Origin: a virus | Taxonomy: Duplodnaviria; Heunggongvirae; Uroviricota; Caudoviricetes | Reading direction: 5' to 3' (one strand) | Virus record (IMG/VR): IMGVR_UViG_3300028797_000099 | Span: 1 to 64,000 of that record | DNA: 64,000 nt | Part shown: piece after piece, positions 28,796-44,171 of the stretch | How the letters are laid out: the number at the start of each line of letters is the position of its first letter | How positions within the stretch are numbered: the first letter of the stretch is position 1 | Notes under the pieces: model-generated | What the model saw: only the letters and a program-made list of their open reading frames with translations | What the model was told of the DNA's origin: nothing | Database searches by the model: none | Made by a program: the position numbers and the translations under genes

Positions 28796-30007
28796 TTACT
28801 CCGATGCCTTGAAGTTATATACAGGCTTGATTGTTTCGACAATATCGCAACTGTCCTTGATGTTCTCGATGATTTCCTTTGCTGGCTTGTAAGCCATCGG
28901 GGATTCATCCAAAGTGGATTTATTTACACATGTACTGTAAATGCCACGCATGGACTTCTGGTACGCTTCGAGCGAGATGCTTTCCTTCGCATGAGAGCGT
29001 GACATCTTTCTTCCTGCTCCATGCGGTGCAGAGAAGTTCCAATCAGAGTTTCCCTTGCCCGTGCAAATAAGAGCCCCGTCCCTCATGTTCATAGGAATAA
29101 TCAGGCGTTCGCCTTCCTGTGCGGATACAGCTCCCTTACGGAGAATCATGTGCTTCATGTCGATGTAATTATGCAAGGTGCAGAACTTGTCCACGACATG
29201 CAGACGGAGCGCCCTGACAATCTCTTCAAGCATCGCTTCACGGTTACGTGTTGCAAAGTCCTGTGCCAACGCCATGTCATGCAGATATCCGTCGAACGAC
29301 TTGCCAGTGAGGTAAGACAGTTCCTTCGGGGGAGGGAAATGAGGGATGCTTGCCAACGCTGCGGGAAGCTCGTCTTCACGACCCTCACTCTTATACTTGG
29401 CTATTATGGCACCACGCTGCTGAGTCAGGTCGTTGCATTCGTCGATTGCAACTCCCTGCCAGTAATCACAGGTTGCCAACCCAAGATGTCGGGAACCTGA
29501 GTGGATTACGATGTACAGGTTACCATGAGAATCCTTGTCGCATTCGCAGAAGTGATTGCCTCCGCCCAAACTTCCAAGCGACAACAACTCGGTATATTCC
29601 ATCTTCCCTTCCTTGTAGACAATCATATCCTCGATAGGAAAGTCCTTTGCCATCGAGTGCTTGCTTTCACGATGGGACTTCCCAGACGGAATCCTTTCAC
29701 GGATAACCTTGTCCAATTTATCAAAATCAACCGAACGGTCTTTCAACTTGGCAACAAGCATACCACACCCAATGTCCACCCCGACGAGATTAGGCACAAT
29801 CTTGTCCTTAATCGTCATGGTAGTGCCAACGGTGCAGCCCTTCCCAGCATGCACATCGGGCATGATTCTAACCTGCATGTCCTTAGCCCAGCACTGACAC
29901 ATCATGTTCAACAACTGTGTATATGCATCTGGGTCGATATTGTCGCTGAATACCTTGGCGGTATTAAACCTACCCTGTATATCAATCATAATAAACCTAT
30001 CTACCAA
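28796..30007 (-). CDS. rtcB: RNA-splicing ligase RtcB
   Basis: 403 aa with the diagnostic RtcB motifs MPDVHAGKG, GCGM, GGGNHF and HGAGR. Confidence 0.9.
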   Translation of the reverse strand: MVDRFIMIDIQGRFNTAKVFSDNIDPDAYTQLLNMMCQCWAKDMQVRIMPDVHAGKGCTVGTTMTIKDKIVPNLVGVDIGCGMLVAKLKDRSVDFDKLDKVIRERIPSGKSHRESKHSMAKDFPIEDMIVYKEGKMEYTELLSLGSLGGGNHFCECDKDSHGNLYIVIHSGSRHLGLATCDYWQGVAIDECNDLTQQRGAIIAKYKSEGREDELPAALASIPHFPPPKELSYLTGKSFDGYLHDMALAQDFATRNREAMLEEIVRALRLHVVDKFCTLHNYIDMKHMILRKGAVSAQEGERLIIPMNMRDGALICTGKGNSDWNFSAPHGAGRKMSRSHAKESISLEAYQKSMRGIYSTCVNKSTLDESPMAYKPAKEIIENIKDSCDIVETIKPVYNFKASE

Positions 30008-30353
30008 TCAATTCTTTTTTATAACCATAGGCAATATCAAATGCCTTACCCATCTCAATCGCCGCTCGGATAGCCTTCTTGATGTCATTATCCTTCACAA
30101 CGCAGTCGTACAGATTTCCGAACGCAACTGGACTCGAATACTCCCGGTCACGAGTACGTATTTCACTCCACATGAGTGTATTGCCGTCATTAGTATCCTT
30201 GTCCTTGTAGAAAGACATGTTCAAAACGGTGTTATTGAACGTGATATTCAACATGCTACCGTCAGCAACTACTCCACAGTCAGGCAGATAGTGCATAGCG
30301 AAATCAAGGTCATCCTTCTTGATTCGCAAATATTGAAGATTCCGTCGTGCCAT
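29997..30353 (-). CDS. hypothetical protein
   Basis: Track ORF trimmed to MARRNL (AAAGGAAT RBS). The longer N-terminus would read through the tRNA. Confidence 0.45.
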   Translation of the reverse strand: MARRNLQYLRIKKDDLDFAMHYLPDCGVVADGSMLNITFNNTVLNMSFYKDKDTNDGNTLMWSEIRTRDREYSSPVAFGNLYDCVVKDNDIKKAIRAAIEMGKAFDIAYGYKKELIGR

Positions 30354-30375
30354 AGTATTCCTTTTCAAAAAGTTA

Positions 30376-30449
30376 ATCGGGCAGGTGGGATTCGAACCCA
30401 CACTGAAGGGGGTTTAAACCCCATTCCTCTACCAGTTGGGTTACTACCC
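30376..30449 (-). tRNA. tRNA, anticodon UAA (Leu-type decoding) with short variable loop and imperfect D-stem (atypical)
   Basis: Minus-strand cloverleaf. Acceptor CGGGUAG/CUGCCCG (one G-U). D-loop AACUGGUA. Anticodon stem GGGG/CCCC. Loop UUUAAAC, anticodon UAA. T-arm GUGGG-UUCGAAU-CCCAC. No encoded CCA. 74 nt. Confidence 0.7.
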
Positions 30450-30462
30450 GAACCAATTCAAT

Positions 30463-31611
30463 TTAGTCAGAAAGCAGACGCTTGATTCTGTCACGAGCCC
30501 GCATGAAGTTTTCATGGTAGGTTCCGTTCAGATAAACAACATCTTCTGTGCAGTAGTGCTTACCGAGAATGCTCATCAAGACCTGATACTGCTTCTTCCT
30601 ATCTTCGAAGCTGTTCGTGAGGCAATCCCTGCTTCCGTCCTGCACCCAGCTATCTTTTTTCGGAGGCATAACGAAGATGAGGTCGTATTTCAGGAACTTC
30701 GCATTGGCTTCGATAAGCTTATAGTCGTCTTCGGTGATGGCATACCTGTCATCCATCGAGTAATACTTAGCGTACATGAGCGTTGTCATTGCGTCACTGT
30801 CACAGATGTTGACCTTATGCCAACTTGCCGAGTTGACTCTGTACTGCTCGTTAAGAAAACGAAGGTAGTCATTAAAGGTCAGCTTGGTATCATCAGGCTG
30901 CGGTTCCTTTCCGTTTTGAGCGGCGATGTAAGTGTGACCGTATTCCTCGGTGTACCCAACATCGAAGTATCTGGCAAGGTCTTTCGTGAGCGTGGACTTG
31001 CCTTCCGATGCCGTACCGATAATCAGGACACGCTTGGCGAACTGAGCCTTGAACTCATGCCCAATGATTTCGTCCCAATACTTCATCGGTTCCTTGCGTA
31101 TCTTTGTTGCAGAAATCTGATTGAGCTCTCTCGGCAACAGATACACATTGGGGCCTTTACTGACCAACGACATGATTGCCTGTCTGTACGACGGTTCGCC
31201 AGTAAAGACAGTCGTTTTCTGAAGCAATTTCGTACACTTTCGCTTGCTGACATCAGCATTGCCGTACACGATTTCAGCGAGCTTATCGCTGAGAGCTTCC
31301 AACCATTCAGACCATTTGTCCATGTAACCTGCAATGCCGATATCGTTATCCTTCATCATGACGACGTGAACAAGCGGGTCGCCTTCAAACATCTTCTTGA
31401 TGATTTCATAGCGACGTTCAATCGGAAGACCGATTCTCGTACCACGGTCGCCATCAAGCCCGCAAACGGCAATGATTGCACCCTTAGAGCAGAGCTTCTT
31501 CGCTGCCATTACGAGGTCAAGATGACCTGTATGCATCGGGCTGAAAGACCCGAGGACAACCCCGTATTCACGAGGGCCACCGCTGATTTGGTTAATCACG
31601 TCGTCAAGCAT
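30463..31611 (-). CDS. nadR: bifunctional NMN adenylyltransferase / ribosylnicotinamide kinase (NadR-like, no HTH)
   Basis: N-terminal nucleotidyltransferase motif GSFSPMHTGH (H/TxGH). C-terminal P-loop kinase GTASEGKST. Domain order matches NadR. Confidence 0.75.
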   Translation of the reverse strand: MLDDVINQISGGPREYGVVLGSFSPMHTGHLDLVMAAKKLCSKGAIIAVCGLDGDRGTRIGLPIERRYEIIKKMFEGDPLVHVVMMKDNDIGIAGYMDKWSEWLEALSDKLAEIVYGNADVSKRKCTKLLQKTTVFTGEPSYRQAIMSLVSKGPNVYLLPRELNQISATKIRKEPMKYWDEIIGHEFKAQFAKRVLIIGTASEGKSTLTKDLARYFDVGYTEEYGHTYIAAQNGKEPQPDDTKLTFNDYLRFLNEQYRVNSASWHKVNICDSDAMTTLMYAKYYSMDDRYAITEDDYKLIEANAKFLKYDLIFVMPPKKDSWVQDGSRDCLTNSFEDRKKQYQVLMSILGKHYCTEDVVYLNGTYHENFMRARDRIKRLLSD

Positions 31612-32295
31612 TTAAGCCTCCACAGTGTCTGTTTCAAGCTTCTTCTCGGTATGAGACCATTCGACCCAACCGTAGATGGTGTTGATAAACCAGCAAACAT
31701 ACATCGCCACCATTGCCCATTCGCCAATGAGTGCGAAAGTCACGATGGAAATGCCATCAAGCACAAACCAGAAGAACCACTGTTCACGGTAGCAAGTGAT
31801 AATGAGAATCTGAGCAATGACCGTGAAGCTTATGCTCAACGCATCCATGTACGGAACTGCACCGTCAAGAACAAACTTGTCGAACGTACCGAAGCCAACG
31901 GTAAGAACGATTGTCGCAATAATCGAAATAACCCATGCCTTAGGAGAGAGTCGCTTCGGAATAACGTGCGTTCTGTCCTTTTCGAGCTGCTTGTACCATG
32001 CGTACAAACCATACACCATCGTCACGTTGTAGAAGATATATTCGCCAAATTCAAGCCACAGGCGGCTTTCCCAACAGATGTACATATACATGAAGTTGAA
32101 AACGAAACTCGGTGCGTAAGCCCAGATGTTCTTCTGTGCAAACATCACGGTTGAAATCGTTCCCAGGAGTGCCGTCAGCATGGCAAACCACATTGCGGTA
32201 TGGCCATCAGGCATCATGATGGTGAAGATGATGGTGAAGATGATGAACGCTGTCATGTACAGCGCACGGAATTTATTTTTGATAAAAGACATATT
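31612..32295 (-). CDS. pnuC: nicotinamide riboside transporter PnuC-like membrane protein
   Basis: 227-aa Trp-rich polytopic membrane protein directly upstream of nadR, the classic pnuC-nadR arrangement. Start MSFIKN behind an AAAGAAGG RBS. Confidence 0.55.
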   Translation of the reverse strand, partial: NMSFIKNKFRALYMTAFIIFTIIFTIMMPDGHTAMWFAMLTALLGTISTVMFAQKNIWAYAPSFVFNFMYMYICWESRLWLEFGEYIFYNVTMVYGLYAWYKQLEKDRTHVIPKRLSPKAWVISIIATIVLTVGFGTFDKFVLDGAVPYMDALSISFTVIAQILIITCYREQWFFWFVLDGISIVTFALIGEWAMVAMYVCWFINTIYGWVEWSHTEKKLETDTVEA

Positions 32296-32330
32296 GCCTT
32301 CTTTGTTGATGGTTTTTGTTGTTTGTGAAA

Positions 32331-32359
32331 AATATACTAACTTCATTCCCCTCTGTCAA
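32331..32359 (-). promoter_or_regulatory. promoter TTGACA-17-TATATT driving pnuC-nadR; -35 in CCCC/GGGG hairpin
   Basis: Motif match. Confidence 0.5.
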
Positions 32360-32375: not shown

Positions 32376-33104
32376 TTAACCACCTGCGGGCCAGTCAACG
32401 TAGCACTTACCCTTATTTTTCTTCACATAGGAAATAATCATGCGCTGCATCTGCTTGTACTCCTTGTCACTGCACTCGTCGGTGTTCTGAATAATGACAG
32501 CATCATTGTCAAGGATAAAGGACGCAAGGTCGCAGAAGTCCAAGTAAGAATTGCAGCTGTCATCTACGCTCAGAATAGACAAGTCTGCATTGGGCTCGGT
32601 AATCTTGTCAATCGTCCTGAGCATGTAGCTCATAATGATAGACTGGAAGGATTCATGCCCATAGCATCCGTTCGAAGCCCAATATTTCGGCCCAATGTAT
32701 GCACCGTTTTTCTTGGACTCTACTTTTGTATTCTTGATGGTAAGAGTGATATTCCAGTGCTTCTTGAAGCTCTTCTTCATGTAAGCAATGAACTTGCGAT
32801 ATGCAGCAACAATTTCATCATTGCGCTTGATTTCCTTAGCGGTAATGTTCAGGTAGCCCTTCTTTTTCTCAGACCACTTGCCACAAGTCAACTTGTCGCA
32901 CCAGTATTTCATGATGATTAGGAAGCAGTAGCTAGCCTTTTCTTCAGGCAGCTTCCTTTCGATAAGCGTTCTCTCGCTAAAATCCATCTCACCGTCAATA
33001 CAGACCTTGACGGGTTCCTTGTTGAATACGCTACCCCTCGGGATGACGATTGCGTGCATCGAGGAAGAGTTCGTCTCGAATGTTGATTCTCGTATCGTTT
33101 TCAT
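32376..33104 (-). CDS. hypothetical protein, FETNSSS-motif family (paralog 1 of 4)
   Basis: N-terminus MKTIRESTFETNSSSMHA is shared with 38194-38673, 40169-40882 and 40892-41326. Confidence 0.6.
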   Translation of the reverse strand: MKTIRESTFETNSSSMHAIVIPRGSVFNKEPVKVCIDGEMDFSERTLIERKLPEEKASYCFLIIMKYWCDKLTCGKWSEKKKGYLNITAKEIKRNDEIVAAYRKFIAYMKKSFKKHWNITLTIKNTKVESKKNGAYIGPKYWASNGCYGHESFQSIIMSYMLRTIDKITEPNADLSILSVDDSCNSYLDFCDLASFILDNDAVIIQNTDECSDKEYKQMQRMIISYVKKNKGKCYVDWPAGG

Positions 33105-33113
33105 TCCATTCTC

Positions 33114-33623
33114 CTATCTGATAATCGTGATATTACCGAAATCCTTAGCGGGATTGAGTAAAAGTATGTTGTGGTGAGGACGGGTATTGTGTTCCTCGTC
33201 CTTGACAAGGTCGTCTATGATGACATAGTCGTAACCGTCGTACCTGCTCAGGTCGTTGTTGGCAAGCTGTTCCGCCACCAGATGAATCTTACCGAGTCCG
33301 TATGCGGCCATCATGCCTGGGTGGAGGACTTCCTCCCTGTCGGATTCCTTCAACCATTCCCGGCTGATTGCGTAATCAACCGAGTCATTCTTAGTAAAGA
33401 CACAGCCACGGGGGAACCCGTACAATCCAAACCTGTCGAAGATGCTATCGACGACATCATCACGGATATCATCCTTGGTCTTCCATCCCCATGTGAACAA
33501 ATGCACGAACAGGGGTTTGTAACGGTCGATGAACCCCTTAATCTTCTCGCAGTTTTCCTGCATGAAGTTGAGCGATGTCAGGTCATCTACGACTGTATTT
33601 TCAATATCTAATACCAGCTGCAT
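33114..33623 (-). CDS. hypothetical protein (possible HAD-like hydrolase)
   Basis: N-terminal LVLDIENTVVDD and distal YDYVIIDDLVKD resemble HAD motifs I and IV. Weak call. Confidence 0.3.
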   Translation of the reverse strand: MQLVLDIENTVVDDLTSLNFMQENCEKIKGFIDRYKPLFVHLFTWGWKTKDDIRDDVVDSIFDRFGLYGFPRGCVFTKNDSVDYAISREWLKESDREEVLHPGMMAAYGLGKIHLVAEQLANNDLSRYDGYDYVIIDDLVKDEEHNTRPHHNILLLNPAKDFGNITIIR

Positions 33624-33625
33624 CT

Positions 33626-34198
33626 TTATTCCTTGTTGTAATCTCTAACTTTCTTTACATAACTGGAAATGTCGAGTTCCTCGGGGTGGAGCTTGCCTTG
33701 ACTGAAATACTCGAACTTCAGTAGCGTGGCGATTTCCCTTGGTGCGTCCTTAACGACCTCGTCGTACGCTTCGGCACTATCAATCAATTTATTCATGGCA
33801 CACTCACGGCAGTACGGGCTAACCCATCCAGTCCTCACCATGGGCACATCAAGCTTTCCACAGACGATGCAGACATTCCGTGATATCGCACAGTAGGCTT
33901 CGAGGATTTCGAAGAGTTTGTCGCTCATGGCTGACGGGTAGATACGGAGTTCGCCGAACTTCTCCTTGATGTCGCAGAAGTAGAACTCATCTCTGGCTTC
34001 CTTCTTCCAGGTGTTTACCTCGTTCTGGATATCCTCGAACATCAGGATGCCAAACGCCTTCGCCCATCCTTCAGGTAGATGGTCCATACAGGTATAGCTG
34101 TAATCGTATCCGTCAACTACCTTTCCCGTGAACGCATTCTTCGGGAGAAGTATCGGGTACTTCTCGATGAGAGCCTTATTTTCTTCCACCGTTCGCAT
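33626..34198 (-). CDS. hypothetical protein with CxxC...CxxC zinc motif
   Basis: CIVCGK...CRECAMNK. 190 aa. Confidence 0.5.
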   Translation of the reverse strand: MRTVEENKALIEKYPILLPKNAFTGKVVDGYDYSYTCMDHLPEGWAKAFGILMFEDIQNEVNTWKKEARDEFYFCDIKEKFGELRIYPSAMSDKLFEILEAYCAISRNVCIVCGKLDVPMVRTGWVSPYCRECAMNKLIDSAEAYDEVVKDAPREIATLLKFEYFSQGKLHPEELDISSYVKKVRDYNKE

Positions 34199-34553
34199 CT
34201 TTCTTTCCCTTTATGTTGACTTCGATACACATCTTCACATAGTCCTCAATAGAACGTATCTCGTACTTCTTGCCGTTGGTTTCAACGAGGGTGGAACCAC
34301 CGTGGGAAATAGTGTCCAGAGCCTCGTACATGAACCATTCGGCGCCTTCCTTGCTTTCGTAGAGGAATGCCATCAGCCAGTCGATAATGCGGTTATCAAC
34401 AAGTTGAACCGGGCCAAGATACATCGAGCGGGAATCCCCTCCAAGAGCCTTGTCCATATTCGAGTTAAACTGTTCAAGTTCCTTTTCCATGCTGTCACGG
34501 AGTTCTACCAGCCGTTTAAGCAAGTCAATGAGCAATTCTTCTGTGTTTGCCAT
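34176..34553 (-). CDS. hypothetical protein
   Basis: Start MANTEE behind a GAGG RBS. Downstream of the promoter at 34572-34601. Confidence 0.5.
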   Translation of the reverse strand: MANTEELLIDLLKRLVELRDSMEKELEQFNSNMDKALGGDSRSMYLGPVQLVDNRIIDWLMAFLYESKEGAEWFMYEALDTISHGGSTLVETNGKKYEIRSIEDYVKMCIEVNIKGKKDANGGRK

Positions 34554-34571
34554 ATAAACCTCTTTTTTCCA

Positions 34572-34601
34572 AAATATACATACTTCTTTTGAGATTGTCA
34601 A
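34572..34601 (-). promoter_or_regulatory. promoter TTGACA-18-TATATT
   Basis: Motif match. Divergent from the clpX promoter. Confidence 0.45.
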
Positions 34602-34633
34602 GGGAAATACCTAATTATTTTTCCACCAACCCC

Positions 34634-34662
34634 TTGCCACCCTATAAAAAATATACTATATT
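34634..34662 (+). promoter_or_regulatory. clpX promoter TTGCCA-17-TATATT
   Basis: Motif 24 nt upstream of the clpX RBS AAAGGAATTACC. Confidence 0.5.
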
Positions 34663-34685
34663 AATTCAAAGCAAAAGGAATTACC

Positions 34686-35945
34686 ATGCCAAGCAACAAA
34701 AGACCTACACAAAACGACACCCCGGTCTGCAGCTTCTGCGGACGCCCGATTGAAGAAAACACCCTTGCCGTACGTGGCATGTCCCCGATAGGAGCATTCA
34801 TCTGCTCTGATTGCGCCAAGCTCGCCAGCAACATTATGGATGCAAGAGCAGCACAGCAACAGCAGAATGGTCGCAAGAAAGAGATGCAGCTACCGTCTCC
34901 GCACAAGATTAAGGAACACCTTGACACGTTCGTCATCGGACAGGACAAGGCCAAGGAAGCCCTTTCCATTGCGGTGTACAACCATTACAAGAGACTGGAA
35001 TACAACGAAATCCGCTCAGACGATGATGTGGAAATCGAGAAGTCCAATGTCCTCCTCGTAGGCCCGACGGGCTGCGGAAAGACGATGCTTGCAAGGGCTA
35101 TCGCAAAGATGCTCAATGTCCCGTTCGCCATCGCCGATGCAACCGTCCTGACCGAAGCTGGCTATGTGGGCGAAGATGTGGACAGCATCATTTCCCGCCT
35201 CCTCCAAGCGGCAAACATGGACGAGAAGGAAGCCGAGCACGGCATCATCTTCCTCGACGAAATCGACAAGATTGCAAGGAAGAGTGCCAACCCGTCCATT
35301 ACCAGGGACGTATCGGGCGAAGGCGTACAGCAGGGCCTGTTGAAGCTCCTCGAAGGAACTGAGGCCAAAATCAATCCGCAGGGTGGCAGAAAGCATCCCG
35401 AACAGAAACTGATTACCATTGACACCAGGAACATCCTCTTCATCTGCGGTGGAGCTTTCGAGGGCCTTGACGAAATCATCTCCGAACGTACTGAAAAAGG
35501 CGGCATGGGATTCGGTGCAGCCATCCACACGAGGGAAAAGAAAAGCCTCAGCGAACTGTTCGATAAGTGCGAACCTGATGACCTCGTGAGGTTCGGACTC
35601 ATGCCGGAACTCGTTGGCAGACTTCCCGTTACCGTCGCCCTTGACGAACTCGACGAGGACGCCCTCCGCAGAATCCTGACCGAACCGAAGAACGCTATCA
35701 TCAAGCAGTACACCAAGCTGCTCGAACTCGACGGAATCAAACTTTCGTTCGACGAGGAAGCGCTCGGGGAAATCGCCCGCCTGACCATCGAACGCCATAC
35801 TGGCGCCCGTGGCCTCCGTTCCATCGTCGAAGAGTTGCTCCACGACGCAATGTTCATGGGCCCCGACAGCAAGGAAAAGGAACTCCGCATCACGCAGGAT
35901 ATGGTCATGGAACACTTCCATATCCAAGAGCGGAAAGCTTCCTGA
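34686..35945 (+). CDS. clpX: ATP-dependent Clp protease ATP-binding subunit ClpX
   Basis: N-terminal C4 zinc finger CSFCGR...CSDC. Walker A GPTGCGKT. Walker [10 protein letters not shown]. Sensor and arginine-finger regions. 419 aa. Confidence 0.9.
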
Positions 35946-35967
35946 TTTGCCATCATACAATAAAATA

Positions 35968-35993
35968 GCCAGCGATAATCGCTGGCCTTTTTT
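35968..35993. terminator. bidirectional terminator after clpX
   Basis: GCCAGCGA-TAA-TCGCTGGC, then CTTTTTTAT. Confidence 0.65.
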
Positions 35994-36435
35994 ATACTTT
36001 ATGTTCAGAACACTTAATCGCAATCCTCATTGAACGGAGTACTGAATCATCGTTTACCATTGTCTTGAGGATTTTACGAAGTTCTTTTGGACTATCACAC
36101 TTTACCAACTCGCAGTTTTCAAGTTTTAGCGGTTTCACATAGACTGGATAGAATTCCGAATAAGAAATAGCGGCAAACTTATTGCGAACAGCGCTTTTTG
36201 TTTTCGTGTTCGTGTAAGTCAACACAATGCGGTAGTTCTCGTCCTGTGCGTCATCATTGAAAAATATCCTAGACTCTTCTTCAATAATAGGTTGAAGGAC
36301 AATCTTCGCTACTCCTTTCGTAAGTCTACAAACCTCGTCATTCAACCTGTCGAGTTCATCCTCCACCTTTTCTTTGCTCCGCCTTTCTATGTTTTCTAGT
36401 TTTTCCAAATCAAAGTAATCGGAAGCCATGTTCAT
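35992..36435 (-). CDS. hypothetical protein
   Basis: 147-aa ORF. Confidence 0.5.
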   Translation of the reverse strand: MNMASDYFDLEKLENIERRSKEKVEDELDRLNDEVCRLTKGVAKIVLQPIIEEESRIFFNDDAQDENYRIVLTYTNTKTKSAVRNKFAAISYSEFYPVYVKPLKLENCELVKCDSPKELRKILKTMVNDDSVLRSMRIAIKCSEHKV

Positions 36436-36812
36436 CCCTCCCGTTTCACGATGTCATCGTACGTCAGACAAGGCTCGACCTTAGGAAGTAACGCCCTCTC
36501 CTTCATGCGGATAGTTTCCGACTTGCTCAGCTTGTTACGGAGACGCACACAGTTCTGCCTGAGACTCTTTATAGTCTTAGCATCCTTTTTCGCCTGTGCC
36601 TTGTTTCCTTTGGCCTCGTTCTGCAGCTTCGCAAGAGCAGCGGCATACTCCTCGTTCGTCATAGGACGGGCGTTCTGCTTCGTAAGCTGTTTGAGAATCT
36701 TCTTGACATCGTCGTAACGGCACCAACGGCCATCGGAGTCATCTACGGCACGGATACCCATGTCGGTAATCTTCATCGAAAATCGTCTCAATTCATTCAT
36801 CTTGCACCTCAA
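36432..36812 (-). CDS. hypothetical basic protein
   Basis: 126 aa, K/R-rich coiled coil. Confidence 0.45.
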   Translation of the reverse strand: MRCKMNELRRFSMKITDMGIRAVDDSDGRWCRYDDVKKILKQLTKQNARPMTNEEYAAALAKLQNEAKGNKAQAKKDAKTIKSLRQNCVRLRNKLSKSETIRMKERALLPKVEPCLTYDDIVKREG

Positions 36813-37011
36813 TTTTATGGAGTTCGGCGTCGTACTCGTCCACGGTCAACTCTTTTGGTTTCAAGTGTTTAGCCTTCGCCAGCAAGGAAACGTGAACCAG
36901 CATATTTCCATCCTTACACAGTACATACGCCCAACTCGATTTCACCTTTCGAGTTTTCGCAACCGTCTGCCGTGCAAGCAATTTACCCAGTTCTGGTATG
37001 GAAGTCTTCAT
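36793..37011 (-). CDS. small hypothetical protein
   Basis: 72-aa ORF. Confidence 0.4.
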   Translation of the reverse strand: MKTSIPELGKLLARQTVAKTRKVKSSWAYVLCKDGNMLVHVSLLAKAKHLKPKELTVDEYDAELHKIEVQDE

Positions 37012-37024
37012 ACTCCCTCCTAAG

Positions 37025-37435
37025 TTAATCCAAGTTAATTAAGTTAATGCAATCCACGATGAACTGACCGAAGTCGTCCTGAATCGCAGCAGCAATGTTA
37101 GGGTCTAACCTTTTGGTTCCTGTGAGATATCCCCATCCACGCACATCGAGGTCAATCTCGTCGCCGTCAGCCTTGAACCTAACCACTGCGGAACTCTGGG
37201 AGCCCAAGTACTCGGGATGCCCGAAAGACTTCTTCATAGGGGGTTCCTTACCCTCTAGGACTGCATTCATTGCATCTACAATAGCCTTGAAATGCTCATC
37301 GGCAGTGCCCGTGAAGGCAGCGTCAGACATCGAACTGGTTGTACGGTTCCCTGCAGAATCCCAGATGGTATCTAGGCAAATCTGGTCGTTTTTAAACGGG
37401 GATATAAAGTATTTTTTCCATTTGTATTCGTTCAT
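37025..37435 (-). CDS. hypothetical protein (leaderless or very short leader)
   Basis: The annotated N-terminal 13 aa overlap the promoter TTGACA-17-TATATT, whose -10 ends 6 nt before ATG 37435. Start trimmed to MNEYKW. Confidence 0.45.
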   Translation of the reverse strand: MNEYKWKKYFISPFKNDQICLDTIWDSAGNRTTSSMSDAAFTGTADEHFKAIVDAMNAVLEGKEPPMKKSFGHPEYLGSQSSAVVRFKADGDEIDLDVRGWGYLTGTKRLDPNIAAAIQDDFGQFIVDCINLINLD

Positions 37436-37441
37436 AGTTAA

Positions 37442-37470
37442 AATATAGTTAATTTTTTGTAATTTGTCAA
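37442..37470 (-). promoter_or_regulatory. promoter TTGACA-17-TATATT, -10 ends 6 nt before ATG
   Basis: Motif match. Confidence 0.45.
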
Positions 37471-37505
37471 TCAATTAAAAGAATCGGGGCAAAAACACCC
37501 CGATT
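37469..37505 (-). terminator. terminator AATCGGGG-loop-CCCCGATT plus T-run
   Basis: Ends the 37651-38175 transcript after a GC-rich 3' UTR. Confidence 0.5.
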
Positions 37506-37650
37506 GTGTCCCGCATCACGGCGTCGGTGCGTACGTCACCGCCTTTGTTTTCAGCTTGTCCATAGGGTTTCAAGGCTTTGGGCCGCCACCTGCCGTTACG
37601 CATCCGTTCATTTAACTCCGCAAGTCCATCGTGCGGAGACGAGACAATCG

Positions 37651-38175
37651 TTATGGCTTCTCCTTGGAAGGAGGAGCGAAGATTTCATCTGATTTCTTCT
37701 CAAATTCACGAATCATGTAAGCAACGATGTTCCAGTCAGGTTCCAATAGGGATGATTCCAGTTCCTTAAACTTCGTTTTAATCCACAGTCGCCAAGTAGC
37801 CAGTCGGCCATAGCCTTTAAACATATCATCAATCCACTTGTCGATATAAGCATCGTCCCATTCCTTGTAGTCACCAAGCAAGGACGTACCCATCATTCCA
37901 ACCGCAGACTGGGTATGGATGAACTCATACTTGTCCTTCGGAGGATACTTCTGGGTCACACAAGGAGAGTGTTCCGGGTCGTTAACAACGCTTCTGAAAA
38001 CGACGCCGAAAGCTTCCTTGTCATTTCCAGAGTAGATTTTCAATGCAATATCGGTTGGCGACGTACGTTTAAGTACGTAGCTCAAATTACCAATAACGCA
38101 TTCCTTGTAATCGCCAGCATGAGAAATTTCATCCTTGCTAGTAATTCGTTCCCACAATCTATCAATAAGGCTCAT
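37651..38175 (-). CDS. hypothetical protein
   Basis: The track start is TTG. ATG MSLIDR behind a GGAG RBS is used. Confidence 0.5.
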   Translation of the reverse strand: MSLIDRLWERITSKDEISHAGDYKECVIGNLSYVLKRTSPTDIALKIYSGNDKEAFGVVFRSVVNDPEHSPCVTQKYPPKDKYEFIHTQSAVGMMGTSLLGDYKEWDDAYIDKWIDDMFKGYGRLATWRLWIKTKFKELESSLLEPDWNIVAYMIREFEKKSDEIFAPPSKEKP

Positions 38176-38193
38176 TTTCAATCTCCGTTGATT

Positions 38194-38673
38194 TTAACCA
38201 TCGAACCACACAGCGTTTGCCTTCACATATATCTGACCATTCTCTTCAACCTCAGTAATGCCCGATTTATCGTAATCATAATCACCTTCAGAGGTGAAAT
38301 TGTCGGAAAGCTCCTTCATTTTAAGGTAACTGCAAGCAACATGTGATGTATTCAGATGATACATAAGAGATTCGAGCGGACCGTAACCCTCTCCATACTT
38401 CACAGAAAGCTTGATAAATTCCACGACAAAGTCCTTAGGCAACTTGCCAATGCTTTCCGGCTCGTTCTTCATGAGGTAATCAGCATAGTCATGTACGTCG
38501 ACTATGTCATCCCTCTTATCCCACGGTCCGCTGCCACCCATCGGGTTACACAGAAGCCAAACCAAGTTCGGGTCACCTGCGACAAACCTGTCCCATTTTT
38601 CCTTCGGCGTATACGTCAAGGCGTGTGCCGAAGACGAATTAGTTTCAAATACTGAATATCGTACTGTTTTCAT
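38194..38673 (-). CDS. hypothetical protein, FETNSSS-motif family (paralog 2)
   Basis: Start MKTVRYSVFETNSSSAHA behind an AGAGGA RBS. GGSGPW..DDIVDVHDYADYL block is shared with paralog 4. Confidence 0.6.
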   Translation of the reverse strand: MKTVRYSVFETNSSSAHALTYTPKEKWDRFVAGDPNLVWLLCNPMGGSGPWDKRDDIVDVHDYADYLMKNEPESIGKLPKDFVVEFIKLSVKYGEGYGPLESLMYHLNTSHVACSYLKMKELSDNFTSEGDYDYDKSGITEVEENGQIYVKANAVWFDG

Positions 38674-38692
38674 AAGTTCCTCTAATATACCA

Positions 38693-38730
38693 CAATATAA
38701 CAAAAAAGCGGATGGCTGTCAACCATCCGC
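38693..38730 (-). promoter_or_regulatory. terminator hairpin GCGGATGG/CCATCCGC with TTGACA in loop, plus -10 TATATT
   Basis: Hairpin followed by a T-run on the minus strand after lemA. A -10 lies 18 nt downstream of the loop TTGACA. Confidence 0.5.
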
Positions 38731-38751
38731 AAGGCACGTAAAGAAAATTTA

Positions 38752-39348
38752 TTAGAACTTTACCGTCGGGGCCACATCAGCGCCAGTAACAGCGGAGAAC
38801 GGCACCTTCGGGGTCACTCCGGCGAATCCCGCCACGAAGACACCGGGGAATGTTCTGACCTTGTTGTTAAGGTTGTTGACTGCCACATTGAACTGGCGTC
38901 TGGACTCGGCGATACGGTTTTCGCATCCTTCAAGCTGAACACGCAGGTCACGAAAAGCGGCGTTAGCCTTCAAGTTCGGATAGTTTTCTGTAACCATCAT
39001 GAGACGCTGCAATGCTCCACCGAGGCTGTTCTGTGCTTCCTGGAACTTCTTCATTGCACGTTCGTCACTGAGCATGCTTTCATCCATCTTAATCACGCCA
39101 CCCATACGGCTACGAGCCTCGATGACTTCGGTGAGCGTACTCTTCTCGAAGTTGGCTTCGCCCTTCACCGTTTCGACGATGTTCGGAATAAGGTCGTAAC
39201 GACGCTGGTACTGGTTTTCGACGTTAGCCCAGCTCATCTGCACACCGTTTTCAAGAGTGCGAAGGGAGTTGAACTGGCCGATGAAAGCGCATCCGCTGAT
39301 AAAGGCGAGCACGACAATGACGATAAGTACGAGTTTACCCGTAGACAT
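38752..39348 (-). CDS. lemA: LemA-family membrane protein
   Basis: N-terminal TM, then the LemA core NSLRTLENGVQMSWANVENQYQRRYDLIPNIVETVKGEANFEKSTL...RQFNVAVNNLNNKVRTFPG. Confidence 0.7.
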   Translation of the reverse strand: MSTGKLVLIVIVVLAFISGCAFIGQFNSLRTLENGVQMSWANVENQYQRRYDLIPNIVETVKGEANFEKSTLTEVIEARSRMGGVIKMDESMLSDERAMKKFQEAQNSLGGALQRLMMVTENYPNLKANAAFRDLRVQLEGCENRIAESRRQFNVAVNNLNNKVRTFPGVFVAGFAGVTPKVPFSAVTGADVAPTVKF

Positions 39349-39385
39349 TTTATACCTCTTTGGTTTAGATTGTTGGTTTTGTTGA

Positions 39386-39415
39386 AAATATAGCATTTAA
39401 CTTGGTGCTTGTCAA
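39386..39415 (-). promoter_or_regulatory. promoter TTGACA-18-TATATT
   Basis: Motif match. Confidence 0.45.
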
Positions 39416-39418
39416 GGG

Positions 39419-40159
39419 CTACCATCCGCCATGACTTCCGCCACCGCCGAAACTGCCTCCGCCGAATCCGCTGCTGCCTCCGCCACCCTTGCCTCCGCCA
39501 AGACATGACAGTATAACGAGAACGGTACTCAACACGGGAATATCAGTGAGCGCCTCGATGATACCAAGTAGGATTAGGACGACGATTACTATGGCTACCA
39601 CGATGGCTACCGTGGTTCCGCTCACCTTCTTTTCATCGGCAGGGGCGAGCTGAGCCGTATCAAGGGTTGCCGTGAGCGTAATCTTCTTCTCTTCTTGGAC
39701 CTTCGTGGCAATCATGCTTGCAAGCTTGATGATGCCCTGACCACCCTCTCCACTCTGCAATGCGGGGATAAGGGAGGTCTGCTGCATATGTTCCACGAGG
39801 ACATCAGGCAAATACCCCTCGGAACCGTAACCCACATGTACGCCTCGGTAGTGCGGGTCCATCACGACATAGATGAATACACCCTCGTTCGAATCCTTGC
39901 TGCAGATTGCCCACTTCTGGGCTACACGCAAACTGAATTGAACCGGGTCTTCACCGTCAATCGTCTTGAATGTCGCCACGGCAAGGCCGAAACGAGCGTT
40001 CTTGGCAAGGTCGGACGCAATCGAATTTAATTGGTAGACCTGGTTTGCCGACATGATTCCCGCCCCGTCGTAAACGAACGAGTTGGTTGGAATCGGTGGG
40101 ACCTCGATGGCCGAAACCAACGAGACAAGTAGCACTAATATGGCTAGGATTTTCTTCAT
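39419..40159 (-). CDS. TPM-domain (YgcG-like) membrane protein with Gly-rich C-terminus
   Basis: Signal peptide, TPM domain, TM helix and a GGGKGGGGSSGFGGGSFGGGGSHGGW tail, typical of the LemA-associated TPM phosphatase family. Confidence 0.65.
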   Translation of the reverse strand: MKKILAILVLLVSLVSAIEVPPIPTNSFVYDGAGIMSANQVYQLNSIASDLAKNARFGLAVATFKTIDGEDPVQFSLRVAQKWAICSKDSNEGVFIYVVMDPHYRGVHVGYGSEGYLPDVLVEHMQQTSLIPALQSGEGGQGIIKLASMIATKVQEEKKITLTATLDTAQLAPADEKKVSGTTVAIVVAIVIVVLILLGIIEALTDIPVLSTVLVILSCLGGGKGGGGSSGFGGGSFGGGGSHGGW

Positions 40160-40168
40160 GTTTCCCTC

Positions 40169-40882
40169 TTAGCTGTGATAGAATGTTAGGCTGATGCGTT
40201 TTCTGAGAAGGTCTCTCGGCATGTCATGCTTCTTCTCGTACAGGTCTTCTCGCCAATCCTCGGGACCGAAGAAAGTCATAGCACCTCTAAAGGAGTCACT
40301 TGTCAGACAATTACCTGTAATGCCGACGTAATGAGCAAGCTTCGGACAGTTCGGATAATCGCTGTTCTCGTTGAACCGTTTTAGCATGTCATCGTATTCA
40401 TCACGGGGCATGTCAGCAGGGTCATACTCGCAGTTCCGATAATCCTGTGGCTCATTGCCGTCGATGACAACCTTGTCGCCATCCACGGTCAGTGCATAGC
40501 AACGATAGTCCTTGACCTCGGGAAGACCGAACTCTTTATACACATCATTGATGATGTCAAGGAAATCCTTTCGGTTCCTTTCCATGATATCCTGACGCAC
40601 GACATAGCTAACCTTCCCGTCCTTATCGACCTTTCTATCGATAAGGCAGGAGAATACAGACTGGGCGGCGAGATACTGGATAATCCTCTTGACATCGTCA
40701 GTGTCGCACTTGGAGTTGCTGGACTGCCAGAACGTATCCAGCTCGATTTCAAGCAATCCGTTCTCGTCGGGCAGCGGGAACTCCGACTTGTCTCGAAGGG
40801 CAGGTTCAGTACCCTGTGGATAAGTGAAGGCGTGTTCAGACGAGGAGTTCGTCTCGAAAACATTCATTCTGATGGTTCTCAT
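40169..40882 (-). CDS. hypothetical protein, FETNSSS-motif family (paralog 3)
   Basis: N-terminus MRTIRMNVFETNSSSEHAF. 237 aa. Confidence 0.6.
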   Translation of the reverse strand: MRTIRMNVFETNSSSEHAFTYPQGTEPALRDKSEFPLPDENGLLEIELDTFWQSSNSKCDTDDVKRIIQYLAAQSVFSCLIDRKVDKDGKVSYVVRQDIMERNRKDFLDIINDVYKEFGLPEVKDYRCYALTVDGDKVVIDGNEPQDYRNCEYDPADMPRDEYDDMLKRFNENSDYPNCPKLAHYVGITGNCLTSDSFRGAMTFFGPEDWREDLYEKKHDMPRDLLRKRISLTFYHS

Positions 40883-40891
40883 AGAGTTACC

Positions 40892-41326
40892 CTAATCGTT
40901 GTCGTTTCCCATGGAGATTACAGAGCCGCTGAACACAAAGGTGAACAGTTCCTCTGGGTCATCAAGCATGTTGCCAATGCGACGGCTATCTTCGTCTTGG
41001 GCAGGTGCGCTCTGGTGGTCGATGTAACCAGACGGTTCATCATTGAAGTCGAAATCGACGATAACGCCACGCTCTTCGAAGTATTCCTGGATTGCAGGGA
41101 GCTTTTCACGGAGGCCTTCGTGGAAGATATACTTGCCAGCCACGAGAGCATAGTCGAGGTGGTCATCAGGTGTTTCCACATCTGGGCCATACCAACCATA
41201 CTCACCGCTGCCAAATACCCTGATGCGGGGATAACGCTTCGGGTCGAACTTTTGTTCAGTGACTATGCAGAACGTATGGGCACTCGAACTGTTTGTTTCA
41301 AAAACAGAATCTCTAATTGTCTTCAT
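40892..41326 (-). CDS. hypothetical protein, FETNSSS-motif family (paralog 4)
   Basis: Start MKTIRDSVFETNSSSAHTF behind an AAGGATGG RBS. FGSGEYGWYGPDVETPDDHLDYALVAGKY block. Confidence 0.6.
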   Translation of the reverse strand: MKTIRDSVFETNSSSAHTFCIVTEQKFDPKRYPRIRVFGSGEYGWYGPDVETPDDHLDYALVAGKYIFHEGLREKLPAIQEYFEERGVIVDFDFNDEPSGYIDHQSAPAQDEDSRRIGNMLDDPEELFTFVFSGSVISMGNDND

Positions 41327-41327
41327 T

Positions 41328-42278
41328 TTACCATCCTTGGGTTGTAACCTGAAGCAGGTCATGAATGTTTTCCTTACCCGTGAACGAGTAACGCTTGTCC
41401 AGAGCTGCGGTGCTCATGCGGGCTACCTGCATGTTCGGAACGTCGATGTACATCGTGGCACAGGTGATGTTCCCGTCAGCATCCTTCACATCCGTGTCGG
41501 AACCCTGGAACAGCGTATTGAAATCCTTGTCAGAGATATTGAGAGCCGTCTTCGGGTCCAACTGTTCTATGCCGAGGCAGTCGAACGACATCACCTTAAA
41601 GGGAAGAATCGAGCGCATCATCATGAATTTCAGCCAGTTGATATTAGCCTTGATTTCATCACTGTGCTTTTCAAGCATGGCATGACCACGACGCAAATCC
41701 TTGTAACCAAGGATAAGCACCTTCCTGTCGCTCAATGCAGGGAGGTCCTTCGCAGTCAAGATGCCCGCAATGGTATGGATTACAACATTGTCGCCGAGCG
41801 TGTCGATGAAGTCGAAGTCTTCCTTGTTGCTGGAATCCGTAAGCGAGATGCCGATACCGTGAACGAGACCGTCGCCCACAATCTTGCAGATGATGTCCTT
41901 GTACGGTTTCAGGTGACGCTGGTTGATTGTGATGTTTGCGATTACACCCTGTTCCTTCAAGCGTTCGAGGAACCAGACGAGGTCAGGATGGGCCAAGGCG
42001 TTGCCACCACCGATAGCGCACTCGGTTCCTGAATGAAGGGTAGCAATCATCGGTTCCAATGCCCTGAGGTCGCCATGCTTGCCATTTACCGTAGAGTTTT
42101 CATGGCAGTAAACGCATCCACCGTCGCACTGGTCGGTAATCTTGATGTCAAAGTTCTCGGGAAAATCATATGTGAAATGGTCGGCCATCGGGTCGAGCGT
42201 TTCCTTGATTTTGGTGCCATCCGAGTAGATGGTCACCATATGGTTGCCGTTTGTATATGTGTTAAGTATCGTTCGCAT
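41328..42278 (-). CDS. radical-SAM enzyme (candidate 7-carboxy-7-deazaguanine synthase QueE-like)
   Basis: CDGGCVYC is the CxxxCxxC radical-SAM cluster motif. It is adjacent to and co-oriented with the QueC-like gene. Confidence 0.5.
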   Translation of the reverse strand: MRTILNTYTNGNHMVTIYSDGTKIKETLDPMADHFTYDFPENFDIKITDQCDGGCVYCHENSTVNGKHGDLRALEPMIATLHSGTECAIGGGNALAHPDLVWFLERLKEQGVIANITINQRHLKPYKDIICKIVGDGLVHGIGISLTDSSNKEDFDFIDTLGDNVVIHTIAGILTAKDLPALSDRKVLILGYKDLRRGHAMLEKHSDEIKANINWLKFMMMRSILPFKVMSFDCLGIEQLDPKTALNISDKDFNTLFQGSDTDVKDADGNITCATMYIDVPNMQVARMSTAALDKRYSFTGKENIHDLLQVTTQGW

Positions 42279-42279
42279 C

Positions 42280-43257
42280 TTAGTCTCGCCAACGGTTTCT
42301 CTTCATTTCTTCAATGAATCCTTCGGGGTAGTACAATTCGTTAGACATTCCATTGTACGTTCCCGACATGTGAATGATTTCCGACGTAGCCTTGTCGTAA
42401 GTCTGGCATGCAACGCAATGTCCGCAACGACCCTTGTATGTCGGGCTATAACAGAAGCTACACAGTTCGATAGGGAAATGACGGTAGTTCAAGTTACGGA
42501 TAATATCCGCCTTTGTCAGGAACTGAAGGGGATAGCTGAACATGATATTCTTCTGCCCAACCACCGTCAACAGATGCTCCTGTGCGGCAAGGATATTGTG
42601 CGACCAGTTCCAGAAGTCGTCACCCTTGTGATATCCGAAGTGGTAGCAGGTCTTATTCCTGCCACACAGAGATACCATCGAGGCCATAAAGGGTTGTTGG
42701 AAAAGAGACGGTTCCGAACCGTTCCAGTTATCCATATTCCCTTCAAGCTTAATGAAATCTCGTTTAGGTTCATAGTCGTACTTCTTAGCGAGATATTCGA
42801 GAATCTTTTCCTGAGAAGCAACTTCAGACAAATAGTGATGGGATGTGCCAAACTGTTCACACCGGAAGCTGAGCAAGCGTGGCTTGATACCCTTTTCGAG
42901 CAAATCAACGAGAATAAGCGTACTGTCAAGACCACCACTGAATACTACCGCATTGTTGATAATATCTTCAAACTTCTTTGTAATAGGCTTTACTTCATGG
43001 AGCCTATCGAAGACCTTCTCTGCGGCAGATTTGAATTGGTGGGTTTCCTCAGGCGATTCGACATCGCACAAAACTTCTTCGGGAGCGGCGTCGCACAATT
43101 CCGCTTCATCTTTCTTTTCATCCTCAGCGTCCACCTTCAATTCAGCCTTATACGGCTTCTTTTTGGCCACGAGAGCTCGCTTCAACAGGGTGCCGTATTT
43201 CGGTTTAGACTTTGTTTCTGGACGAATCTTTTCGTTTGATTGTTTCTTTTTAGTCAT
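42280..43257 (-). CDS. queC: QueC-like PP-loop ATPase (7-cyano-7-deazaguanine synthase-like) with Lys-rich N-terminal extension
   Basis: PP-loop SGGLDS plus a C-terminal zinc cluster CSFCYSPTYKGRCGHCVACQ, typical of QueC. About 70-aa K-rich N-terminal tail. Confidence 0.55.
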   Translation of the reverse strand: MTKKKQSNEKIRPETKSKPKYGTLLKRALVAKKKPYKAELKVDAEDEKKDEAELCDAAPEEVLCDVESPEETHQFKSAAEKVFDRLHEVKPITKKFEDIINNAVVFSGGLDSTLILVDLLEKGIKPRLLSFRCEQFGTSHHYLSEVASQEKILEYLAKKYDYEPKRDFIKLEGNMDNWNGSEPSLFQQPFMASMVSLCGRNKTCYHFGYHKGDDFWNWSHNILAAQEHLLTVVGQKNIMFSYPLQFLTKADIIRNLNYRHFPIELCSFCYSPTYKGRCGHCVACQTYDKATSEIIHMSGTYNGMSNELYYPEGFIEEMKRNRWRD

Positions 43258-43903: not shown

Positions 43904-44171
43904 AAATCCAAGCCCAATCGTTATCCCAAATGTATTCAATAACTTCTTTTGGAGTGCATAGAATTTCCTGTTCACCATTGCCATCTATGCAGATATAGTT
44001 CTTAGCATCCTCATCGTATATGATTTGACCATCCCCAAATCGAACCACATTACATGCTCGATGAATTGCAATGCCGTATCGCCTATATTTGCCTAATACA
44101 TTCATCAAGGAATCTACACCACGAGCATATCGTGGTGCATTGATTCCATATGTCTTTCTCTGACTACGCAT
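43902..44171 (-). CDS. hypothetical protein
   Basis: 89-aa ORF immediately downstream of glf. Confidence 0.45.
   Translation of the reverse strand: MRSQRKTYGINAPRYARGVDSLMNVLGKYRRYGIAIHRACNVVRFGDGQIIYDEDAKNYICIDGNGEQEILCTPKEVIEYIWDNDWAWI

Follow-up and report, generated by a model that had tools for sequence, protein, structure and literature searches.

An N-terminal block shared by diverse phage proteins is linked to an orphan radical S-adenosylmethionine enzyme

The window analyzed here, a 64,000-nucleotide (nt) stretch of viral DNA (Caudoviricetes; positions 1 to 64,000 of IMG/VR record IMGVR_UViG_3300028797_000099), carries on its minus strand four open reading frames (ORFs) that start with the same N-terminal block and then diverge, together with a gene for an orphan radical S-adenosylmethionine (SAM) enzyme. 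The four ORFs had been picked out in an initial annotation made from the sequence alone; their coordinates and quoted N-termini proved exact, and the block, described there as 19 residues long, comprises 18 in the form quoted. The N-terminal consensus of all four is M[KR]T[IV]Rxx[VT]FETNSSSxH. The radical-SAM gene (41328..42278, minus strand; 316 amino acids, aa) encodes the cluster motif CDGGCVYC within a Pfam Radical_SAM match and an N-terminal three-stranded beta domain. It lies directly upstream of the 144-aa family gene, whose ATG is located two bases past the radical-SAM stop codon. The initial annotation had overlooked this neighbor, which turned out to be the decisive feature of the locus. 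The gene order in this part of the window is QueC-like gene, radical-SAM gene, 144-aa gene, 237-aa gene, TPM gene, LemA gene, and 159-aa gene.

The 144-aa protein (40892..41326, minus strand; codons 1-18 at 41273..41326, MKTIRDSVFETNSSSAHT) is the canonical member of what is referred to here as type A. Its block is followed by the motifs GEYGW, LDYA, and GYIDHQS and by a C-terminal GNDND, and it matched the tail-only type A profile with an E value of 6.5e-30. The 242-aa protein (32376..33104, minus strand; codons 1-18 at 33051..33104, MKTIRESTFETNSSSMHA) is a divergent type A member that is basic (isoelectric point, pI, 8.8) and has degenerate motifs (GCYGHES and QNTDE); its residues 1-126 align to the type A profile. 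Its gene adjoins PnuC and a NadR-type gene, and viral contigs of 175 kb and 419 kb have orthologues in the same place. The 159-aa protein (38194..38673, minus strand; codons 1-18 at 38620..38673, MKTVRYSVFETNSSSAHA) is type A-like over its first 66 residues (GSGPW...DYADY) and lacks GYIDHQS and GNDN. Profile comparison aligned it with type A through residue 66, whereas pairwise BLASTP did so only over residues 1-28. A second motif that had been proposed to be shared by two of the copies, GSG..W..DD..D.YA.Y, is loose and needs an indel; it corresponds to the type A motifs GEYGW and LDYA. The 159-aa copy and its orthologue in the sister contig L010 (10991-11467) share 55% identity, compared with 62-87% for the other genes matched there; the 159-aa copy is the fastest-evolving of the four and changes much faster than its surroundings. 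A pattern scan of IMG/VR turned up no relative of this copy.

The 237-aa protein (40169..40882, minus strand; codons 1-18 at 40829..40882, MRTIRMNVFETNSSSEHA) ends in ...LTFYHS and has a body unrelated to type A or to type B, the second main body type of the family. It matched its own subtype profile at 1e-90 and neither the type A nor the type B profile, and profile comparison of its tail with types A and B gave a probability below 1%. Its type is narrow and lineage-specific: only 18 close homologues were found, at 65-97% identity. All four copies have orthologues at the same positions in the relatives L010/L018, L076, and L077. The four had been called a paralog family. They do all carry the block, but that term overstates their relationship, as pairwise identity is 26-29%, nearly all of it within the block, and the 237-aa body matches neither main type.

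The back-translated FETNSSS pattern matched four times in the 64-kb window against 0.01 matches expected, and none of 100 shuffles reached four; no fifth copy was found in a six-frame scan of the window. The shared start could in principle be an artefact arising from a DNA repeat, a recombination cassette, or a match that falls outside the reading frame by chance, and the corresponding check came out against this explanation. Within the first 18 codons, identical amino acids use the same codon in only 1-5 of 12-14 degenerate codons between copies, and serine codons even change from the AGY to the TCN set. Over the 40 nt preceding the four ATGs, the copies are approximately 25% identical, which equals the random level, and a Shine-Dalgarno-like purine run precedes each ATG. 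With synonymous codons scrambled and no relationship in the DNA upstream, the conservation is that of a true N-terminus at the protein level and not of a DNA repeat. The same protein motif also recurs in thousands of homologues, and the probability that the shared start is an artefact is negligible. Longer starts are possible at TTG 38703 and ATG 41362; of 196 ORFs, however, 169 have the motif starting at residue 9 or 10, which favors the starts given above.

Across 168 distinct sequences, R5, F9, E10, T11, N12, S13, S14, and H17 were 100% conserved and S15 was 99% conserved. Conservation was full even at positions for which the search pattern would have accepted other residues and at R5, a position outside the pattern, and the same invariants were seen in members found by profile search and not by motif. 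The strong N-terminal conservation noticed in the window was therefore borne out, and the block is under extreme protein-level selection. When the block was removed, the bodies fell into 28 BLAST clusters. Profile-profile comparison recognized an A-like tail group (T0/T5 at 91% probability, T4 and T10 more weakly) and a B-like tail group (T1/T6 at 93%; T2, T8, T9, and T11 more weakly), and some tail groups, including the type of the window 237-aa copy, matched neither. Type A and type B tails matched each other with a probability of only 0.5%. These sequence comparisons show that the block is a self-contained module placed on bodies without detectable mutual homology.

Beyond the block, type A proteins conserve GEYGW, LDYA, GYIDHQS, and a C-terminal (T/D)GNDN(H). 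In type B proteins, of approximately 130 aa, conservation is limited to the block, a KW..GEL patch, and a hairpin at the C-terminus (YTTPxGxxIVAFGxYGYD), which surround an acidic variable middle. The family as a whole is acidic (median pI, 4.6). Many type A homologues (P0147, P0153, P0186, P0214, and P0243) have an extra conserved C-terminal domain of approximately 110-120 aa after GNDN (...PPNFYD...LYK..SVY...), for which no Pfam match was obtained.

A word-indexed search of 5.8 billion proteins returned 296 homologues of the 144-aa protein, and among the 120 listed, no Pfam domain was present and the sole name was "hypothetical protein." A profile built from 61 homologues retrieved 5,991 representatives at 50% identity with E ≤ 0.001, 2,703 of them with E ≤ 1e-10. 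In a scan of one genome per species (185,579 species), the family was found at 67 loci, mostly on contigs of gut or rumen metagenome-assembled genomes (MAGs) assigned to Firmicutes, Bacteroidota, Patescibacteria, and archaea; isolates were few, e.g., Eubacterium plexicaudatum ASF492. Type A was seen on MAG contigs assigned to archaea and in phages that infect Prevotella (Lak megaphages), gut and rumen Firmicutes, cyanobacteria, Salmonella, Thermus, or Rhodothermus. Two or more copies were present at 51 of 74 loci, nearly always in tandem on one strand. The multi-copy diversification suggested by the window thus held on a far larger scale, with up to nine tandem copies, lying within 12.5 kb, on contigs of related huge phages. 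The four genes of the window are members of a very large, undescribed phage superfamily that is defined by its N-terminal block.

The domain had not been recognized when the window was first read, and this was confirmed by library searches. No Pfam, NCBIfam, or PADLOC model matched the four window proteins, distant type A members matched nothing in Pfam, and a sequence-profile search of the PDB with type A gave nothing. A fold search of BFVD with type A returned one uncharacterised homologue. In PHROGs, the 242-aa and 144-aa proteins reached only E = 0.05 (phrog_28997), whereas this profile was matched by 28 of 36 distant, profile-detected type A members (best E value, 4.5e-12). By transitivity only, the window proteins would therefore belong to phrog_28997, which we infer was built from proteins like gp130 of Microcystis phage Ma-LMM01. 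It is the only library profile that recognizes the family; it carries no function and covers type A but not the other bodies. Megablast of 10 kb of the window against 50,697 deposited phage records gave no match. A full-text literature search for "FETNSSS" retrieved no paper, and nothing relevant was found in the literature on phage radical-SAM paralogs or in a jumbo-phage review.

To characterize the neighborhood of the family, all ORFs within 6 kb of family genes were clustered. One neighbor cluster of approximately 297 aa, present at 51 of 75 loci, consisted of radical-SAM proteins with a CxxxCxxC motif and included window ORF 41328-42278. In all 51 of these loci, the enzyme is encoded on the same strand as the family, usually with a gap of 0-30 nt. 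With a more sensitive profile search, the enzyme was recovered at 54 of the 76 family loci, and in 52 of these it lies no more than 1.5 kb away; the loci without it were mostly short contigs or dispersed extra copies in MAGs that have the enzyme elsewhere. The genes are most often arranged as type A, type B, and radical SAM, and one radical-SAM gene accompanies one to nine family genes. Close homologues of the enzyme were found in 15 Lak megaphage and nine Microcystis phage or cyanophage records, and type A occurred in exactly those deposited records (24 of 24), within about 2 kb of the enzyme. In Lak-A2, the enzyme is followed by five tandem paralogs. Two of three enzyme-seeded lineages have tandem paralogs directly downstream, and the third ends at a contig edge. 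Some partner enzymes carry long extra regions (L021 10993-12528, 511 aa; L061 3629-5704, 691 aa; L082 8001-9284, 427 aa, P0385).

Distant homologues of the enzyme (26-32% identity) were found in three cultured phages, each of which has a partner with a variant block. In Rhodothermus phage RM378, the partner is p106 (type A, E = 2e-12; block MKAFIRFGLSTNSSSSHS), two genes from radical-SAM p108. In Thermus phage phiYS40, it is gp162 (block ...VRLTSMTNSSSASM), whose gene overlaps the start of radical-SAM gp161. In Salmonella phage Arash, block and enzyme are parts of the same polypeptide, gp146c (476 aa; WGL32597.1; L079 5554-6984; block MYLTQIRYGFATNSSSSHS): the type A domain, at residues 5-139 (E = 9e-14), is complete and includes GYIDHES and GGNDN, and the radical-SAM domain occupies residues 170-464 (E = 1e-33). 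This protein is annotated as a "methyltransferase" and is actually a type A and radical-SAM fusion. An annotated RNA ligase gene is located three genes downstream of gp146c, and an annotated NAMPT gene lies approximately 5 kb upstream. The universal core of the block is [IV]R...TNSSS, and its distance from Met1 is nearly fixed, also in Arash, RM378, and phiYS40. Glu10 is replaced in these three phages and TNSSS is kept. The loss of Glu10 possibly covaries with the N-terminal beta domain of the enzyme, which is absent in RM378 and phiYS40 and partial in Arash, although these are three cases. Neighborhood, co-occurrence, and fusion together show that the block is coupled to one orphan radical-SAM enzyme.

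The enzyme of the window is generic at the sequence level. Its matches in sequence libraries were far below threshold (MoaA, NrdG2, and tungsten-cofactor and HxsC maturases), Pfam recognized only Radical_SAM and Fer4_12, and PDB sequence matches were confined to the cluster-motif region. Its only invariant cysteines are C51, C55, and C58, which belong to the cluster. An AlphaFold2 model (predicted local distance difference test, pLDDT, 86.7) shows a partial barrel between a three-stranded sheet at the N-terminus and a beta region at the C-terminus. In structural comparison, the highest score was obtained with SuiB (17.5; 272 of 316 residues aligned), followed by SkfB (16.2), BlsE (15.4), ChlB (14.8), viperin (14.7), PqqE (14.5), EpeE (14.0), anSME (13.8), MoaA (13.7), and CteB (13.2), and PFL-AE (9.9) and QueE (8.8) scored lower. 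As seven of the top ten structural neighbors work on peptides or proteins, the model leans toward a maturase. Two known pathways were considered and rejected. For the 7-deazaguanine (QueC/QueD/QueE) pathway, the enzyme is no QueE, and a QueC-like neighbor occurs only in the window and L010. For a glycyl-radical enzyme with its activase, no activase of the PFL-AE/NrdG family and no C-terminal RVxG[FWY] loop in the client were found.

Taken together, we favor the reading that the block is the element that the enzyme engages and probably modifies, so that one radical-SAM enzyme matures several clients, and we give it a probability of roughly 40%. In the mechanism proposed, the IRxxVFE stretch would dock as a strand, plausibly onto the N-terminal beta domain of the enzyme, the TNSSSxH loop would enter the partial barrel, and one invariant residue of TNSSSxH would be modified by hydrogen-atom abstraction. 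One enzyme would in this way mature or activate a variable set of clients, one to nine per phage and four in the window. Type A would be the ancestral obligate partner with its own Asp/His/Asn motifs, and is probably itself an enzyme or a ligand-binding protein. The initial annotation had suggested a catalytic or N-terminal processing site, which plausibly fits the link to a maturase-like enzyme.

The block also looks accessible in the predicted structure of its carrier. The AlphaFold2 model of the 144-aa type A protein is confident overall (pLDDT, 88.4), and the block is its least confident part, with a mean pLDDT of 46 for residues 1-10 and 72 for residues 11-20. No similar solved fold was found for this model, and structural similarity to flavodoxin/NrdI, SGNH hydrolase, PIN, and 2H phosphoesterase folds was not found. 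A Ser/Thr-rich loop after the first beta strand is a typical phosphate-binding element, as in flavodoxin and NrdI. The block might accordingly be an autonomous catalytic or ligand-binding loop for a metal, phosphate, or nucleotide, with the enzyme merely in the same pathway and not in contact with the block; the further invariant Asp, His, and Asn residues of type A could form one site with E10 and H17. We consider this unlikely, since the same block sits on bodies without detectable homology, some of which have no other conserved polar residue, since AlphaFold2 leaves the block unpacked against the domain, and since the extreme linkage to the enzyme and the fusion argue for physical coupling. 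Two further readings of the block, pyruvoyl self-cleavage (AdoMetDC-like, ES|SH) and a bacterial N-glycosylation sequon (E-x-N-x-S), drew no support from the fold search either, and the dispensability of Glu10 in distant members speaks against the sequon.

Several observations weigh against maturation of the block by the enzyme. The chemistry itself is pure inference. The enzyme has neither the SPASM/twitch auxiliary-cluster cysteines nor a conserved cysteine hydrogen donor, unlike most of its structural neighbors, and the clients, unlike short peptides, are folded and 130-240 aa long. The low pLDDT of the block may merely reflect its invariance in the 61-sequence alignment. A fusion of substrate and enzyme, as in Arash, would be unusual, fusions being more typical of subunits, and the polar motifs of type A (GYIDHQS and GNDN), together with co-evolution from Thermus phages to megaphages, also fit an obligate subunit that is not a substrate.

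These points lead to a different explanation, in which a radical-SAM enzyme of several components uses the family proteins as interchangeable subunits, either accessory or specificity-conferring. In that case, the block would remain unmodified and would dock or complete the active site, e.g., by binding a substrate phosphate or a metal, while the bodies recruit small-molecule or RNA substrates. Fusion of type A to a radical-SAM domain, as in gp146c, is a classic sign that two proteins are subunits of one enzyme. Type A is also confidently predicted to be globular and conserves Asp/His/Asn motifs of its own, and the operon of type A, type B, and radical SAM is stable across phyla. Among the structural neighbors of the enzyme, viperin, MoaA, and BlsE modify nucleotides or sugars. 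Moreover, tRNA and RNA-repair-type genes recur nearby, the latter within a few kb of the module, with RtcB, RlaP, the CCA-adding/poly(A)-polymerase family, or RNA ligase in the fetched flanks of 13 of 69 lineages, a raw count without a background rate. It is hard to explain in this way, however, why nine contiguous invariant residues are kept at a fixed position on up to nine bodies without detectable homology. Type B conserves almost nothing polar beyond the block, and the top structural neighbors are mainly peptide maturases. We regard subunits with an unmodified block as the main rival, possible but doubtful, and retain maturation of the block as the preferred reading.

Metagenomic contigs as long as 422 kb encode an enzyme 100% identical to that of the window. 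Because of this identity and of the relatives on the 175- and 419-kb viral contigs, the window must derive from a huge phage with a genome no smaller than about 420 kb. The related contigs in the genome collection are rumen MAGs assigned to Bacteroidaceae. Loci of the family lie in replication or accessory regions, and prophage loci sit among DNA methyltransferases and accessory genes. Expression data are available for Ma-LMM01, in which gp130 is type A and gp128 is the radical-SAM protein. The genes for gp130, gp129, and gp128 all belong to middle expression class B5, and gp130 is the only one of them for which an upstream promoter is listed; the tail sheath gene belongs to the late class (PMC5780444 Table S3). 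The gp129 gene (L075 6727-7065), which sits where type B sits elsewhere, encodes a Phage_ProQ_C_like domain (PF24203; E = 6.7e-15) and may be an RNA link.

The genomic setting also bears on whether the block could be a capsid-targeting or processing tag like that of the T4 internal proteins, with MKTIRxxVFE cut after E10 by the prohead protease. The T4 sequence MKTYQEFIAE likewise has ten residues, an MKT start, and a hydrophobic-x-Glu end (PMC8442874). The T-even internal proteins are diverse and defense-related and likewise share only a targeting sequence (PMC3012670), and the present family is acidic, multi-copy, and diversified. Nevertheless, the invariant TNSSSxH lies past the supposed cleavage site, and E10 is lost in Arash, RM378, and phiYS40 while TNSSS stays. 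The conserved partner is a radical-SAM enzyme and not a protease or head gene, and in Arash the block heads the enzyme itself. The middle-class expression in Ma-LMM01, as opposed to the late tail sheath, and the position of the loci in replication or accessory regions point in the same direction, and a capsid tag is highly improbable.

The initial annotation had also stressed the LemA/TPM and nicotinamide adenine dinucleotide (NAD) salvage neighbors. Pfam confirmed the identities of the LemA, TPM, PnuC, and NadR-type proteins, but these neighbors are lineage-specific and not conserved with the family. The LemA and TPM-domain membrane pair (38752-40159, minus strand) lies between family copies and is kept in the sister contig L010, but not in other family lineages. 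The accessory island of the window (28796-32346, minus strand) comprises an RtcB RNA ligase, tRNA-Leu(UAA) at 30376-30451, a NadR-type nicotinamide mononucleotide adenylyltransferase/kinase, and PnuC, and a phage ClpX gene (34686-35945, plus strand) lies on the opposite strand. The gene for the QueC-like PP-loop protein (42280..43257, minus strand; 325 aa) immediately precedes the radical-SAM gene within the same run of closely spaced genes. The protein matched Pfam QueC at its C-terminal end only (E = 1.6e-12), had a weak match to QatC of the Qat defense system (1.6e-6), and has a Lys/Glu-rich N-terminal extension of approximately 90 aa; its gene is outside the conserved module. The LemA/TPM, ClpX, and QueC-like genes were rejected as functional partners on the ground that they are lineage-specific.

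Other features of the window include a UDP-galactopyranose mutase (GLF) gene (44171-45427, minus strand) and ORF 55244-56389, a candidate family-2 glycosyltransferase. Together, they hint at phage-directed glycan modification. Long antisense ORFs of 335-572 aa were found opposite NadR/PnuC (30436-32154, plus strand), the QueC-like gene (42229-43239, plus strand), and ClpX (35016-36023, minus strand), and are very probably non-coding shadow ORFs.

NAD-salvage genes (NadR with PnuC, NadE, NAPRTase with isochorismatase, or NAMPT) were found near the family in five of 69 lineages, again as a raw count without a background rate. Loci with RNA-repair or NAD-salvage neighbors include L013, L033, L045, L049, L057, L064, L066/L067, L080, and L082. 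The setting of replication-phase expression and RNA-repair and NAD-salvage islands suggests a role in host interaction or counter-defense and not in virion structure. The initial annotation had read the family as anti-defense or host-takeover effectors; this received no direct support and is a case of guilt by association only. More tentatively, it could be proposed that an enzyme free of auxiliary clusters installs a new modification or a protein-derived cofactor in TNSSSxH, and that the diversified bodies form a takeover or counter-defense toolkit beside RNA-repair and NAD-reconstitution genes, although we would hold this more doubtful than not.

The approximately 6,000 type A clusters at 50% identity lack annotation, resemble no solved fold, and are not mentioned in the literature searched. 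Through the link to the enzyme, thousands of "hypothetical proteins" become part of a defined two-component system, for which it can be hypothesized and tested that the invariant nine-residue motif is the site of interaction or modification. Cultured and tractable carriers are available in Salmonella phage Arash, with a single fused gene, Microcystis phage Ma-LMM01, RM378, and phiYS40. Modification of the motif by the enzyme would amount to a new radical-SAM chemistry acting on proteins; if the motif is unmodified, the family would represent a new way of building a multi-subunit radical-SAM enzyme.

Compared with known systems, the family resembles the T4-type internal proteins in being diverse, fast-evolving, and multi-copy, with only approximately ten N-terminal residues in common (MKT...Glu). 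It differs from them in its conservation past the cleavage site, its radical-SAM partner, its middle expression in Ma-LMM01, and the dispensability of Glu10. The likeness to anSME and the sulfatases is that one enzyme serves many clients. The target motif, however, is TNSSSxH here and C/S-x-P/A-x-R in sulfatases, and the latter is absent from the block. No Sulfatase Pfam match or sulfatase fold was found in the family, unlike the clients of anSME, and the window-type enzyme is without the auxiliary clusters that anSME uses. In addition, sulfatase paralogs share a whole fold, whereas the TNSSS clients share only the block.

The radical-SAM maturases of ribosomally synthesized and post-translationally modified peptides (RiPPs), such as SuiB/streptide, SkfB, PqqE/PqqA, ChlB, and CteB, share with the present system a maturase-type gene beside its client genes. 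Neither an RRE (RiPP recognition element) nor a PqqD domain, both known from RiPP systems, was detected here by Pfam. The SPASM/twitch cysteines of RiPP maturases are likewise not conserved in the window-type enzyme. RiPP precursors are short, typically less than approximately 100 aa, and consist of a leader and an unstructured core, whereas the clients described here are folded, as indicated by the confident type A model. Their nine invariant residues at a fixed position represent a far stricter constraint than that of a RiPP leader peptide, and, unlike in RiPP systems, client and enzyme are fused into one protein in the lineage of Arash.

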